DNA of 64,000 nt, from assembly GCA_965228885.1 (NCBI GenBank), contig OZ245841.1, positions 94,240 to 158,239 of the forward strand, read 5' to 3'. The notes beneath the pieces are model-generated. The model was not told the origin of the DNA and searched no databases. It saw only the letters and a program-made list of their open reading frames with translations. The number at the start of each line of letters is the position of its first letter. The first letter of the stretch is position 1. The stretch comes from Rickettsiales bacterium. GTDB taxonomy: Bacteria > Pseudomonadota > Alphaproteobacteria > Rickettsiales > CANDYO01. A program made the position numbers and the translations under genes. Positions 29,521-34,647 of this stretch are shown here, one piece after another.

Positions 29521-31185
29521 TTAAGTAAACTTTAGGCTTGAGAGAAACTTATCTACCTCGTTCTGCAGCATCTCTGATTGTTTCAGCAAATCTTTTGCCG
29601 AAGAAGCCATTTGGCTTGAAGCCTCACCAGCATGATTAGAAGAATCAGCCACTTTTTCTACTCCTGAAGTAACAGAATTAGACATAACAGATACTTCAGA
29701 GATACTCTCAGCAATGTACGAACTGGCTTTATTTTGCTTCTCAACAGAAGATACTATCGAAGCTGAATTATGATTAATTGTTTTCACTGACTCAGTAATT
29801 TCCTGAATAGATGTAACTGCTTTATTTGTTGAAGATTGAATGCCTGATATCTGAAAGTTAATCTGCTCAGTAGCCTTAGAAGTTTGAGTAGCTAATGCCT
29901 TCACTTCATTAGCTACAACTGCAAAACCTTTTCCCATATCACCTGCTCTAGCAGCCTCAATAGTTGCATTTAAAGCCAAAAGATCTATTTGAGATGTTAT
30001 ACCATTAATAATATCAATAATACCACTCACTGCATTAGCTTTTGTTTCTAAATCAGCAACCATTGTGTTTACTTGATCCGCCTGCTCAACTACCTTGCCT
30101 GCATATCCAAGAGAATTATTAACCTGGATAGTTATTTCATTCACCTCGTTGGTAAATTCACTAGTGGCCTTGGACACTCCCTCCATACTAGTACTAGCCT
30201 TAACTGAAGTGGAGGATAACAATTCTGTTTCCTCTTGAGTACGAGCTGACAATTGCTTAAGCTCCAAAGCAGTAGCATCCATTTTCTTAACAGATAATGC
30301 CACAGTATCAACAATACCTTTTACACTAGTTTCAAATTGACGTGAAAATGTTAACATAGCATTATGTCTATCTTCTTCTGCTTTTTGAGCTTGTTGCTTA
30401 GCCTGCTCCTCAAGCTCTTCTTTTTTTATTCCAGTTAGACGAAACACCTCTAATGCCTTAGCTATATTTCCTATTTCATCTTCTCTTTTGATAAATGGTA
30501 CTTCTTCAACTCGATTATCATTGGCAATAATATTCATTACCTCAATTAGTCTTGTAAGAGGCTTAAGCAAAGATGAATGAAGAAATGTCGATACTAGAAT
30601 AATTATTATAACTAAAGCAGATACGAATAATACGGGCTTTATAGCAACTCCCCTTACCCATTCGTCTTTTTCTTTATTAGAGGTGCTAATAAATTCAATA
30701 AGCTGATCTCTCAACAACTTAGATGATACATCAACGCTATCAGAGGCTCTCTTAAGAGAATCAAGATCTTTAGAAAAGTCCCCTTTTCCTAAAGAATCTA
30801 CAAGTAACTGAACTTTTTCTATAAAAACCGTAAAATCATTGTCTAAATTGATAATACTTTGCTTGATTTTTTTAGGAAGAACAGAGGTCATATCCTGAAA
30901 ATTAATTTTCTCATTCTCCTTTAAAAGACCTGACAATTCTTTTTGTACAACTTTAATAATACTTTCTTTATCTGCATAGTCAGATATACCTGCCCATATT
31001 TTTTCCTGAATTAACAATCTATGATCATTCTTGTTAGAATATACTCTAGCAATATGTTCAGAATTCTGCACTTCTTTAATCAAGGAAATATAATCTTTTA
31101 AATGCATTGTATAAATAAAAATTACCATTAGCATTAATACTACTGATATACCCGCCGCCAAAAAGAATTTTGTCTGTAATCTCAT
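29521..31185 (-). CDS. methyl-accepting chemotaxis protein (2 TM, HAMP, MCP signalling domain)
   Basis: Highly conserved hairpin tip '[31 protein letters not shown]'. TM1 '[19 protein letters not shown]', TM2 '[18 protein letters not shown]', and HAMP '[15 protein letters not shown]...[12 protein letters not shown]'. Confidence 0.9.
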
Positions 31186-31415
31186 GATTCATACCTTAAT
31201 TAAATTATTTTTATAATTAACCTAATTTACAGACCATATCATCAAATCATTTATAATTAGTAAATATTATCAACAATTTATTTTAAAAACTCTAATTTAC
31301 AGAGAAAATTACCGCCAACTCAAAAAGAAAGGTTCAAAACTATTCTCTTTATAATTAGATAATGATCCTCTATAATCAAACCAAATGAACCTACAATATA
31401 AAACACTAGACAACT

Positions 31416-32639
31416 ATGCAAAAGCGAACAGTATATAAAACCATTGTAATAATAATGCTATTAGTAATTATAGCATTTCTTGGAAAATATGGATATAAGT
31501 CATATTATAATATAAAATTTAACTCTGCTATAAGCAAAGCAGCTAAAATAGCCCCTTCCATCTGGGATGATAAATATAGTAATTCGATTATAAAAGATAA
31601 ATATAAGGTTGTAATAATCACTAATAACGGAGGTGAATTCAGCTATTCTGAATATTTTAAATATGCCGCTGAAAAAATGGGATGGGAAGTAAAAATATAT
31701 TATAACCAAACGCTTGGAAATGAACCGGAAATTTTAGAGTTTGATCCAGATTTTATAATATTCTCTCAATTTTCTGAAACCACTCCAGATATAAACACTA
31801 AAATCATTGCTCACAAATCTAAAAAATATCTTCTCAGCTTTTCATCTATAGATGCTATTAGGAACCGCTTCAAATGGATATCTATAAGAGACCCTTACAA
31901 ACCTACTAATAGTTTCAAGAAGTTAGTTTCCATGGTTGATGGAATACTCACTATTGCTCCAGAACTACACTTCTATCAGGAAATGTTTAACAAACTAAAT
32001 AAACCATTTTATGGATTACAAATCTTACCATTGGTGCCTAAATTCAATAACGAGCCAACAGAACCAAAGAACTTAATGTGGCTTAGTGGCGGATGGGATA
32101 AATTTAGATCATCCGATAACTACAAACAGTTTATCAACTATTTAAGTGAAAATGTACCAATGAGAGTGTTTGGCCATTATAATTCTTCATCTTATTTAAA
32201 ACCTCGTATTTATGGAGGATATATTGCTCCAGGAATTGAGAATATATCTGCTATACGAAACAATGGAATCTATCTCCTTACTCATAGCGACCTTCATTTT
32301 AAAGGAGGAGAAACAAATATGAGAGGATTTGAAGCATCTGCTGCCAATGCTGTAGTAATTTCAGATAAACATCCTTTCATTGTAAAGAATTTTGGAGATA
32401 GCTTCTTATATTTTGATCACGACAAAGATGCAAAAACTATGTATAACCAAGTTAAATCTCATATAGATTGGATAAGGAGCAATCCAGAAAAAGCACAGAT
32501 AAAAGCAGCAAAAGCTCATCAAATTTTTCTTGATAAATTCACTATCGAAAGAGACTTAATCAGAATTGCTAAAATGCATGAACACATTATAGTCGAAGAA
32601 AATAAATCTATGAATCTGTTATATCCTCTAGGATATTAA
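31416..32639 (+). CDS. CgeB-like glycosyltransferase family protein, paralogue 2 of 3
   Basis: 407 aa. Anchor 'TIVIIMLLVIIAFLG'. 'IKDKYKVVIITNNGGE', 'GWEVKIY', 'DPDFIIF', 'MRGFEASAANAVVISDKHPFIVKNFGDSFLYF'. Confidence 0.55.
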   Translation: MQKRTVYKTIVIIMLLVIIAFLGKYGYKSYYNIKFNSAISKAAKIAPSIWDDKYSNSIIKDKYKVVIITNNGGEFSYSEYFKYAAEKMGWEVKIYYNQTLGNEPEILEFDPDFIIFSQFSETTPDINTKIIAHKSKKYLLSFSSIDAIRNRFKWISIRDPYKPTNSFKKLVSMVDGILTIAPELHFYQEMFNKLNKPFYGLQILPLVPKFNNEPTEPKNLMWLSGGWDKFRSSDNYKQFINYLSENVPMRVFGHYNSSSYLKPRIYGGYIAPGIENISAIRNNGIYLLTHSDLHFKGGETNMRGFEASAANAVVISDKHPFIVKNFGDSFLYFDHDKDAKTMYNQVKSHIDWIRSNPEKAQIKAAKAHQIFLDKFTIERDLIRIAKMHEHIIVEENKSMNLLYPLGY

Positions 32640-32653
32640 TTAGGAAAGAATAA

Positions 32654-33862
32654 ATGACCAAAAAATATAAAATACTTACTATCGTCATCACATTATTAAC
32701 AATAGGTGGACTTGGAAAATATGGTTATAAACTTTATTTGGATTATAAATTAGACGTCGCTTTAGCAAAAGCAAGCAAGACACCTCCTGAATTTTGGGAT
32801 AATAAATATAAAAACTCTATTATAAAAGATAAATATAGAGTTGTTATTATTACCAATAATGGTGGTGAACGTAGCTATGCTGATTATTTTAAATATTCAG
32901 CAGAAAGAAGAGGATGGGAAGTCGAAATATACTTTAATCAAACTTTAGGACATGAAGATGATATTCTAGCTTTTGACCCAGATTTTATTTTATTTTCTCC
33001 TTACGCCAACAATAGTGAACTAGACATGAGAATTTATGCACATAGATCTAAAAAATATGTTTTAGCATTATCACCTATTGAATTAATGGTTGGAGATAAA
33101 TTAAAAAAATACAACCCATATATTCCATCTGATAAGTCTTTCAGAAAACTATTATCTTTCGCCCATGGAGTCTTAACTGCTTCAAAGGAGGTAGATTTTT
33201 ATCGAGTTATTTTTGACAAAGCTAAAAAACCTTTCAATGGCTTACAAATACTTCCATTAGCCCCAAAACTTGATAACGAACCCGCCGAACCAAAGAGCCT
33301 AATGTGGATGAGTGGAGGATGGGATAAATTCCGCTCATCTAAAACTTATAAAAAATTCATCAAAATGCTTGGAAATACAACTCCTTTAAAAGTATATGGT
33401 CATTATTACGCTGCATCATTTCTCCAGCCAGGAATATATGATGGATATATCCCCTCATCTCTAGACGTTTTTAATACTATTAGAAAACATGGTATATACT
33501 TATTAAGTCATTCTCAACAACATATTAATGCAATAATTCCAACTCTTAGAGTTTTTGAAGCCACAGCAGCAAATGCTGTTATAATTTCAGATAAACATCC
33601 TTTTGTTATAGAGCATTTTGGCGACAGCATTTTATATTTTGATCAAAATGCTGATAGTATAAGCATGTATAACCAAGTTAAATCTCATATAGATTGGATA
33701 AAAAACAACCCAAAAGAAGCTAAGCTGAAAGCAACACAAGCTCATCAAATTTTTCTTGATAAATTCACTCTAGATCAAGATCTAGTGAGAATAGCTAAAA
33801 TGCATGAATATGTCATAGCTCAAGAAAAAGAAATGAATCTTAAATATCCTCCTGCTTATTGA
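32654..33862 (+). CDS. CgeB-like glycosyltransferase family protein, paralogue 3 of 3 (tandem copy)
   Basis: 402 aa, collinear with 31416..32639 over its full length. 'LRVFEATAANAVIISDKHPFVIEHFGDSILYF'. Begins 14 nt after the previous stop. Confidence 0.55.
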   Translation: MTKKYKILTIVITLLTIGGLGKYGYKLYLDYKLDVALAKASKTPPEFWDNKYKNSIIKDKYRVVIITNNGGERSYADYFKYSAERRGWEVEIYFNQTLGHEDDILAFDPDFILFSPYANNSELDMRIYAHRSKKYVLALSPIELMVGDKLKKYNPYIPSDKSFRKLLSFAHGVLTASKEVDFYRVIFDKAKKPFNGLQILPLAPKLDNEPAEPKSLMWMSGGWDKFRSSKTYKKFIKMLGNTTPLKVYGHYYAASFLQPGIYDGYIPSSLDVFNTIRKHGIYLLSHSQQHINAIIPTLRVFEATAANAVIISDKHPFVIEHFGDSILYFDQNADSISMYNQVKSHIDWIKNNPKEAKLKATQAHQIFLDKFTLDQDLVRIAKMHEYVIAQEKEMNLKYPPAY

Positions 33863-34647
33863 GAAGAAAAAAATCTTTGCATTCTTAAAAATGCATCTTT
33901 AACATCATAGTTACTATGCCCTATTCCTTCATAAATAACTATATCTTTTGGGTCTTTTGCTTCAAAAAATATCTTCTCTGAATGAGAGTGAGGAACCACC
34001 TTATCTGCAGTTCCATGAATTATAAATAACGGCTGGTTTATTTTTGCAATATTACTCAATACTTTAAAATTATCCTTAGTAAGATATTGAGTAAACATGA
34101 AGGGATAAATCTCACCTGCCCTATCAGCAATTGAAGTATAAGGAGTAATTAAAAACAAACCTTTGAAATTATATTTAACTGACATTTCTGTAGCAATTCC
34201 ACTACCTAAAGACTCTCCAATGATAATAGTATCTGAAAGATTATATCCCTTAAATTGTATATAAGATATAGCAGCCTCAGCGTCTAGATAAAGCCCTTTT
34301 TCTGTTGGAAAATCAGCACTTCTACCAAAACCTCTCCATGCTGGTATAATGAAGCCATACCCCATATCTGATAATTGCCTTAATTTATCTACTCTATTCT
34401 CTAAGTTGCCAGCGTTACCATGTAAGAAAATTATCATATCCTTATTATTATCTGGCTTTCTAAACCATGCTTGTAATTTTATATTGTCCTTAGTAACTAA
34501 CGTTATTTCCTCTGCCTTATCTATTTTATAATAACCTAATTCATACTTTTGTTTCACAGGGTGATACATCATATTACGCTGATTAATATATAACACAGCT
34601 AAAATAATCAAATATACCAACCCAATTAGCACTAATATTCTTTTCAT
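33856..34647 (-). CDS. alpha/beta hydrolase (BEM46/ABHD13-like)
   Basis: N-terminal TM helix, 'IFLHGNAGN', nucleophile elbow 'IIGESLGSG', 'IIHGTADKVV', and 'GHSNY' for the catalytic His. Confidence 0.75.
   Translation of the reverse strand: MKRILVLIGLVYLIILAVLYINQRNMMYHPVKQKYELGYYKIDKAEEITLVTKDNIKLQAWFRKPDNNKDMIIFLHGNAGNLENRVDKLRQLSDMGYGFIIPAWRGFGRSADFPTEKGLYLDAEAAISYIQFKGYNLSDTIIIGESLGSGIATEMSVKYNFKGLFLITPYTSIADRAGEIYPFMFTQYLTKDNFKVLSNIAKINQPLFIIHGTADKVVPHSHSEKIFFEAKDPKDIVIYEGIGHSNYDVKDAFLRMQRFFSSQ

Follow-up and report, generated by a model that had tools for sequence, protein, structure and literature searches.

CgeB of Bacillus subtilis is a putative UDP-sugar-dependent transferase that acts on the spore-crust protein CgeA. 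It has 317 amino acids (aa), is described without a membrane anchor and shares an operon with the gene of its substrate, CgeA (PMC13577073). We examined two adjacent genes for CgeB-like proteins, named A and B, in a stretch of 64,000 nucleotides (nt) from a Rickettsiales bacterium (contig OZ245841.1, positions 94,240 to 158,239; this whole stretch is called the window). Gene A (31416..32639) and gene B (32654..33862), both on the forward (+) strand, are open reading frames (ORFs) of 407 and 402 aa with the same predicted architecture, an N-terminal membrane-anchor helix followed by a GT-B glycosyltransferase whose C-terminal domain belongs to PF13524. We consider it probable, though by no means certain, that A and B form an ancient tandem pair, are transcribed together and encode membrane-anchored PF13524 glycosyltransferases with the GT-B fold, and that the long tracts of identical DNA shared by the two genes are the footprint of short-patch gene conversion.

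The two proteins are collinear from end to end, with 227 of 403 residues identical (56%; BLASTP, E 1e-172), and the codon-aligned DNA is 67.1% identical. This agrees with the initial annotation, which had described two ORFs of these lengths, 14 nt apart, as collinear but diverged tandem paralogues. The 14-nt spacer, TTAGGAAAGAATAA (32640..32653, +), includes a Shine-Dalgarno-like AGGAAAG, implying that A and B would be co-transcribed. The gap between A and B is 8-14 nt in every relative with the pair.

Like CgeB and YkvP of B. subtilis, A and B possess the C-terminal nucleotide-sugar-binding half defined by PF13524 (Glyco_trans_1_2, CgeB/YkvP-like), with R-x-F-E-A in place of E-x7-E, and they share with CgeB the succession of N-domain, C-domain and C-terminal helical tail (CgeB layout in PMC13577073). 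Against the curated gathering threshold of 25 bits, B scores 33.7 bits and A a marginal 25.9 bits (+0.9 over the cut-off). The match covers the C-terminal ~140 residues of both proteins and is also found in 40 of 40 aligned relatives (best E 2.2e-13). Thus, the earlier assignment of the C-terminal domain to the CgeB/Glyco_trans_1_2 family holds, if only barely for A. DUF3880, the other Pfam family that had been considered, gave no match in A or B at E≤1 and none in the 40 relatives at E≤0.1. Unlike CgeB, with its 317 aa and no described anchor, A and B are 402-407 aa long and have an N-terminal hydrophobic anchor; unlike the product of a spore-crust operon containing CgeA, they come from a non-sporulating Rickettsiales bacterium, and they lack DUF3880. 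The neighbours of the pair are a methyl-accepting chemotaxis protein (MCP) gene and an alpha/beta-hydrolase gene with no CgeA-type partner, and a CgeA homologue was not searched for genome-wide. Judged by sequence comparison, A and B are CgeB-like at the Pfam level (marginally so for A) but are not CgeB orthologues.

The NCBIfam scan of A and B returned no match, and the sole matches of a profile search in PDB sequences were to ribosomal L20 and spurious (E>0.01). PF00534 (Glycos_transf_1) matched weakly in only 2 of 40 relatives (E ~0.07), which falls short of CAZy family GT4. By inspection, the GT4 E-x7-E motif is not conserved, as only its second Glu (E302) is invariant; the residue 8 positions upstream is Ile in B, while A has a Glu 7 residues upstream instead.

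The AlphaFold2 model of B, built from an alignment of 40 sequences, has a mean predicted local distance difference test score (pLDDT) of 95.0 and a predicted template-modelling score (pTM) of 0.91. It starts with a long N-terminal helix (residues 2-40) that opens with the hydrophobic anchor. Two alpha/beta domains come next, the N-domain with its strands in residues 62-198 and another with its strands in residues 215-329, and a C-terminal tail of three helices (335-393) completes the model. When this model was searched against the PDB with Foldseek, 94 chains matched with E≤0.001; glycosyltransferases make up the best 50 of the 94. The leading matches are GT-B enzymes, namely MshA (3c4q, E 5.7e-9), SenB, GlgM, GtfC, PimA and sucrose-phosphate synthase, and both domains are aligned. 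The whole soluble part is thus predicted to adopt the GT-B glycosyltransferase fold. Because the model of B has two Rossmann halves and the Foldseek alignments span both, the N-terminal ~200 aa, which had at first seemed to match nothing recognisable, would consist of the membrane-anchor helix (~2-40) and the N-terminal, acceptor-side Rossmann half of a GT-B enzyme.

The best structural matches in both Rossmann domains are MshA, PimA, GlgM and GtfC, which are GT4-type retaining GT-B enzymes, and SenB (E 5.7e-9 to 1e-6; template-modelling score ~0.45-0.58), with sequence identities of only 10-15%. In A and B, as in these enzymes, the first strand is followed by a Gly-rich loop and the first C-domain strand by a basic loop. 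The residues invariant in both the A and B clades include G71-E72 in the former (the NGGE loop), W223-D224 and R227 in the latter (GGWDKFRS), and R299, E302 and A303 in the R-x-F-E-A motif. On the other hand, the GT4-type enzymes and SenB are soluble or peripheral and have no membrane-anchor helix, and A and B lack the first Glu of E-x7-E.

A database search found 92 relatives, and the named ones are all Rickettsiales, Rickettsiaceae and Rickettsiales metagenome-assembled genomes (MAGs) included. Candidatus Phycorickettsia trachydisci has two unlinked copies of the family. The window A and B proteins are carried on a 1.55-Mb contig, and near-identical proteins exist in MAG GCA_025210695.1. Among 1.84 billion representative proteins, a profile search recovered 1063 relatives (247 with E≤1e-30), all of them unannotated. 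Full-length matches rank near the top and are followed mainly by matches to the C-domain; on this search, the A/B family is one branch within a larger superfamily. Our literature searches found no paper on this Rickettsiales glycosyltransferase family. A fused multi-domain version also exists, as the 1202-aa library protein P0100 contains the full family module at residues 390-744.

The DNA of relatives was gathered by exact-protein look-ups. We refer to the window's genome as W, to its two copies as W_A and W_B, and to the loci of relatives as L001-L017. The tandem A-B pair occurs at L001, L008, L009-L011, L012, L014, L015 and L017, and thus in at least seven other Rickettsiales assemblies. 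In a neighbour-joining tree, the A-clade and the B-clade split well before the sampled genomes diverge, and the A-vs-B nucleotide identity is 0.64-0.67 in all seven genomes compared. The separate clades and the constant identity point to an old duplication and rule out whole-gene concerted evolution; they fit an ancient duplication after which A and B would have evolved independently at the whole-gene level. The ratio of non-synonymous to synonymous divergence (dN/dS) between orthologues is 0.07-0.16 for both copies (0.09-0.10 for A against its orthologues). This rules out pseudogenisation, and both A and B are therefore maintained by purifying selection.

Within this diverged pair, we found the perfect runs of 37 nt and 32 nt just where the initial annotation had placed them. 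The 37-nt tract (32439..32475 in A, 33665..33701 in B, both +) encodes MYNQVKSHIDWI, the first helix of the C-terminal tail, and the 32-nt tract (32512..32543 in A, 33738..33769 in B, both +) encodes (K/Q)AHQIFLDKFT in the second tail helix. Two shorter identical runs, also on the + strand, are 22 nt (32356..32377, partner 33582..33603), encoding (V/I)ISDKHPF, and 19 nt (31587..31605, partner 32819..32837), encoding IIKDKY. No further copy of the 37-nt or 32-nt tract was found in the window on either strand with 3 mismatches allowed. At the protein level, the tracts correspond to the best-conserved segments of the family (MYxQVKxHxDWI and AHQIFLxKFT). A/B identity is raised in the 3' third of the genes in all seven genomes (0.71-0.92 in 30-codon windows), and we attribute this general elevation, as judged from the alignments, to protein constraint.

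The DNA inside the tracts is less conserved among orthologues. Inside the 37-nt tract, W_A has the B-type codons TCT (Ser) and GAT (Asp), where the A copies of L008 and L009 have ACT (Thr) and GAA (Glu). Inside the 19-nt run, an ATT (Ile) codon is common to W_A and W_B only, the other A copies having TCT and the other B copies ACT, CCT or GTC. Synonymous sites inside the tracts vary among the orthologues of A and among those of B, and there are some non-synonymous differences too. Classical conversion between paralogues, for example between duplicated tuf genes, homogenises whole genes and leads to concerted evolution. The A/B case would resemble it in being intragenomic and non-reciprocal, with identity within a genome above that across genomes and with shared lineage-specific states. 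It differs in that A and B stay 33% divergent and that only patches of ~20-40 nt would be affected.

We compared the tracts with those of the other pairs. Aligned within each genome, A and B have longest and second-longest exact runs of 37 and 32 nt in W and 29 and 28 nt in L014, followed by L008 (23 and 20 nt), L009 (23 and 17 nt), L012 (21 and 20 nt), L015 (18 and 17 nt) and L001 (14 and 14 nt). Pairs made of an A from one genome and a B from another are a fair control, since the evolutionary path length back to the duplication is equal, and the maximum run in these cross-genome pairs is 25 nt (n=42). When codon columns were resampled from all cross-genome pairs, the probability of a longest run of at least 37 nt was 0.0008 and that of a second run of at least 32 nt was <2e-5; resampling from the closest relatives only gave 0.003 and 3e-5. 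When synonymous codons were instead redrawn from the window codon usage, the probability for the longest run was 0.0016, and a second run of at least 32 nt appeared in 0 of 30000 replicates.

At positions where W_A and W_B encode the same amino acid, the codon is identical at 51 of 64 positions (0.80) in the 3' third vs 82 of 152 (0.54) in the 5' part (Fisher P = 0.0004). The corresponding 3' fraction is 0.49-0.63 in the other genomes, except for 0.79 in L014, and 0.65 in cross-genome pairs within the clade (P = 0.035 against the 0.80 of W). In the 3' third, A and B have a synonymous divergence (dS) of 0.71 in W and 0.85 in L014, compared with 1.6-3.4 in the other genomes and 1.0-1.9 across genomes. 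Exclusive sharing of states between an A and a B is ~1.8-fold more frequent within a genome than across genomes (31 in 3 cells vs 34 in 6).

The most serious alternative is that no conversion took place and that the tracts result from strong protein constraint on the C-terminal helices, strongly AT-biased codon usage and chance; we regard this as rather unlikely. It would account for the location of the tracts in the most conserved segments of the family and for the raised 3' identity in all seven genomes, and runs of 20-25 nt are indeed already reached by cross-genome pairs. However, 0 of 42 such pairs exceed 25 nt, and the three nulls, which keep site constraint or codon usage, are all exceeded (P 0.0008-0.003 for a longest run of 37 nt, ≤3e-5 for a second one of at least 32 nt), so that the tracts are longer than expected, as had been suspected. 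Orthologues also differ inside the tracts at synonymous and even non-synonymous sites. Furthermore, W and L014 are independent lineages and both show the 3' excess and the lowered dS, which the five others lack. Also in favour of this alternative, the excess of synonymous identity over cross-genome pairs reaches only P = 0.035, and a test of derived states does not discriminate. A second alternative, selection on the nucleotide sequence itself as a target of a small RNA or RNA-binding regulator, an internal promoter or a structure element shared by both genes, is most improbable: all synonymous sites are identical across the 37 and 32 nt and both tracts are kept in L017 bar one synonymous change in A, but the same positions vary freely at synonymous sites among A and B orthologues, neither tract has a further copy in the window on either strand at ≤3 mismatches, and the promoter-like (29 vs 19.0 expected) and terminator-like (4 vs 1.2) elements of this AT-rich region are consensus matches only, none of them on the 37-nt or 32-nt tract.

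Short-patch gene conversion is thus the best explanation for the identical tracts that we can offer from these comparisons. It is favoured over constraint alone because the tracts are lineage-specific and beyond expectation, and constraint alone does not explain perfect DNA identity because the synonymous tract sites are not conserved among orthologues. The initial annotation had left the choice between gene conversion and very strong constraint on the C-terminal helix. The protein constraint on that helix is real, but it is insufficient by itself, and conversion is favoured. Conversion appears to be confined to a few patches of ≤40 nt each.

Several observations weigh against this reading. 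The conversion signal is small in absolute terms, an excess of only ~10 identical synonymous sites. Between the two long tracts lie 36 nt in which A and B differ at many positions, and at least two separate events are therefore needed. In the test of derived states, the gene-wide share of lineage-specific changes that match the paralogue state is 0.67 for W_A and 0.45-0.65 for other lineages, and W_A is not singled out; the test does not discriminate because homoplasy is high (background ~50%) at AT-biased sites with few possible states. Finally, no conversion-like difference exists between W and L017 among their 19 differences in A and B.

The comparison with L017 also bears on the timing. 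Over 7.1 kb, the identity of this MAG locus to the window is 98.5%. The 32-, 22- and 19-nt runs are unbroken there, and a single synonymous AAC/AAT difference in A breaks the 37-nt run. The differences between W and L017, 7 in A and 12 in B, are all scattered single sites. Since the tracts were already there in L017 and the differences are scattered, the events predate the split of W and L017 and, contrary to one of the first proposals, conversion cannot be called ongoing. On the other side, the orthologue dS between W and L008, the nearest pair-bearing relative, is 0.76-1.11, so that the tracts are much younger than that split. A few short-patch conversion events between A and B, each of ≤40 nt, would then have occurred after W split from its nearest sampled relatives (orthologue dS ~0.8-1.1) and before it split from the 98.5%-identical strain. 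They would have struck patches where protein conservation keeps the DNA ~75-80% identical, so that microhomology was on offer.

The same tendency to recombine probably produced a chimeric gene, with the anchor of A and the body of B, in a sister lineage. L013 (P0003, four contigs; 6001-7215) and the diverged, separately assembled L016 (P0004; 4001-5215) have a single 404-aa gene in the slot of the pair, between the MCP and hydrolase genes and syntenic with the pair. The first ~36 codons of this gene, from the anchor helix through GK(F/Q)GYK, are A-like and the remainder is B-like. Over codons 0-315, its nucleotide identity is 0.80-0.82 to B copies vs 0.62-0.64 to A copies. The junction is the GKYGYK-coding patch, where A and B are identical over ~20 nt in L008. 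The alignments indicate that the chimera is a deletion via recombination between the tandem copies at the GKYGYK patches. In the neighbour-joining tree, the chimera-bearing sub-lineage is nearer to W than L009 is. An assembly artefact in L013 is ruled out by the four contigs, by the same gene in the same slot of the diverged L016 and by the junction patch being only ~20 nt long.

With regard to function, we infer that A and B are both active transferases, anchored in the inner membrane and using nucleotide-sugar donors on its cytoplasmic side. They would add different or successive sugars to a membrane-proximal acceptor, and the product would be a surface glycoconjugate (lipopolysaccharide-core, O-antigen-like or similar). 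A surface-glycan role is proposed because distant relatives lie in clusters of genes for glycosyltransferases, methyltransferases and an acyltransferase. In L014 and L015, a 555-559-aa Caps_synth/Gly_transf_sug (DXD) transferase is encoded directly upstream of A-B. In L002 (5983-11966), a family member is followed by four GT32-like DXD transferases. L003 (1242-13089) is one co-directional array of Acyl_transf_3, two methyltransferases, two PF13524 proteins, one GT4 and three GT90 enzymes, and L005 (2903-7209) combines GT11, GT90 and a family member. These multi-glycosyltransferase clusters suggest surface-glycan assembly. As a side observation, the arrays of L002, L003 and L005, which are distant Rickettsiales MAGs, have the look of uncharacterised loci for surface glycans in intracellular bacteria.

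A parallel is provided by the lipooligosaccharide (LOS) outer-core loci of Acinetobacter, in which PF13524 proteins are predicted glycosyltransferases (PMC4172580). A. baumannii GtrOC2, GtrOC17 and GtrOC21 share PF13524 with A and B, and are likened to them by this Pfam domain and not by direct sequence comparison. The PF13524 enzymes of the LOS core are predicted to act beside other glycosyltransferase families (PMC4172580), as those of the L002, L003 and L005 clusters would. Unlike the Acinetobacter enzymes, whose roles are themselves predicted, the window pair lies outside any glycan locus.

This last point belongs to those that weigh against our proposal. The function is deduced only from the fold, the family and the gene context of distant relatives, and the pair in W sits amid unrelated housekeeping genes. 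The E-x7-E motif of GT4 is not conserved, and no solved structure is related in sequence according to the PDB profile search. The topology is also debatable. The uncharged span of the anchor averages 17 residues and both flanks are basic, but the positive-inside count is ambiguous: Lys plus Arg averages 2.75 on the N-terminal side vs 3.15 on the C-terminal side, and net charge averages 3.6 vs 1.7. In 64 of 80 family members, the N-terminal flank has the higher net charge, which, taken literally, would place the catalytic domain outside the cytoplasm. If the N-in topology given by net charge were true, the GT-B catalytic domain would face outward.

Alternatively, A and B may be protein O-glycosyltransferases like CgeB, which targets Thr112 of CgeA, and may modify an envelope or secreted protein, possibly linked to the MCP, and not a lipid-linked glycan. 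We consider this unlikely. The Pfam family is that of CgeB, which has the same N-domain, C-domain and C-terminal helical tail and is reported to show weak UDP-glucose-dependent activity on CgeA (PMC13577073). The structural neighbours of the B model include GtfC and SdgB-type protein glycosyltransferases; however, the acceptors of the neighbours as a whole are spread over small molecules, lipids and proteins. GT90 enzymes, which include protein O-glycosyltransferases, co-cluster with the family in L003 and L005 and count in favour of a protein acceptor, but no candidate substrate gene travels with the pair. An MCP gene stands beside family members in several arrangements: it is divergent from the pair in the window clade, forms the order MCP-PhaC-(GT32)-A-B in L001 (MCP at 1197-2855) and L015 (MCP at 1-1156), and in L002 (MCP at 4364-5983) lies directly upstream of a family member, co-directional and with overlapping stop and start codons. 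The L002 MCP is only 29% identical to the window MCP, and in its cytoplasmic part only, so that the linkage may be coincidental. The same variety of MCP arrangements underlies a further reading, that the pair is functionally coupled, family-wide in Rickettsiales, to a chemoreceptor-type sensor and, if the N-in topology held, would form a signal-linked and possibly extracytoplasmic system for remodelling the symbiont surface. We think this very unlikely; if true, a sensor-linked, possibly extracytoplasmic system would be unprecedented for CgeB-like enzymes.

The present analysis assigns a fold and a plausible role to a subfamily of membrane-anchored CgeB-like GT-B proteins that had not been characterised. 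The subfamily is widespread among the Rickettsiales that are symbionts of protists and algae, and its members usually carry the annotation 'hypothetical' or a generic 'glycosyltransferase'. Surface glycans of intracellular bacteria shape host recognition; which sugars A and B would add is worth knowing. The pair is also a small but well-controlled case of paralogue fusion and of probable gene conversion on a micro scale in a reduced genome, with the cross-genome pairs as an internal null. The enzymes are of a known kind and the paralogue dynamics are known as well; nothing here overturns current understanding.

We also inspected the surroundings of the pair. The divergent neighbour of gene A (29521..31185, -) encodes a 554-aa protein with Pfam HAMP and MCPsignal domains, and is thus an MCP gene, as initially annotated. 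The intergenic region between it and gene A (31186..31415) contains sigma-70-like matches at 31188-31217 and 31348-31376 and is, on these consensus matches only, a probable promoter region. The neighbourhood is kept in L008, L009, L013, L016 and L017. In the window clade, the pair is flanked by MCP, DUF2671, nth and folK genes on one side and by alpha/beta-hydrolase, ubiB and ubiE genes on the other. Gene B and the convergent alpha/beta-hydrolase gene (33856..34647, -) overlap at their 3' ends by 7 nt (33856..33862), as they also do in L008, L013, L016 and L017. In distant relatives, a class-I-like polyhydroxyalkanoate synthase gene (PhaC_N and Abhydrolase_1, 584-591 aa) is divergent from the A-B pair or the GT32-A-B trio (L001, 2936-4705; L012, 61-1815; L014, 96-1871; L015, 1230-2996); it is not at that position in the window clade.

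A and B are not the sole copies of the family in the window. A third paralogue, C (4172..5332, +; found by tblastn as an ORF of 386 aa), lies 26 kb from the pair, is ~30-32% identical to A and B, scores 31.4 bits against PF13524, and has the anchor, architecture and motifs of A and B. Divergent from C is an ORF of 306 aa (3160..4080, -) with an N-terminal hydrophobic segment and no Pfam match at E≤0.01; its motif 'GAGFWLWKPY...YADSSG' is possibly transferase-like. A further ORF of 536 aa (1396..3006, -) is rich in Lys, Glu and Ser and likewise has no Pfam match at E≤0.01. The other neighbours of C encode cell-wall enzymes, namely alr (73..1152), a Peptidase_M15_4 protein (5928..6719) and an SLT lytic transglycosylase (7334..8098), together with an RDD protein (6722..7333).

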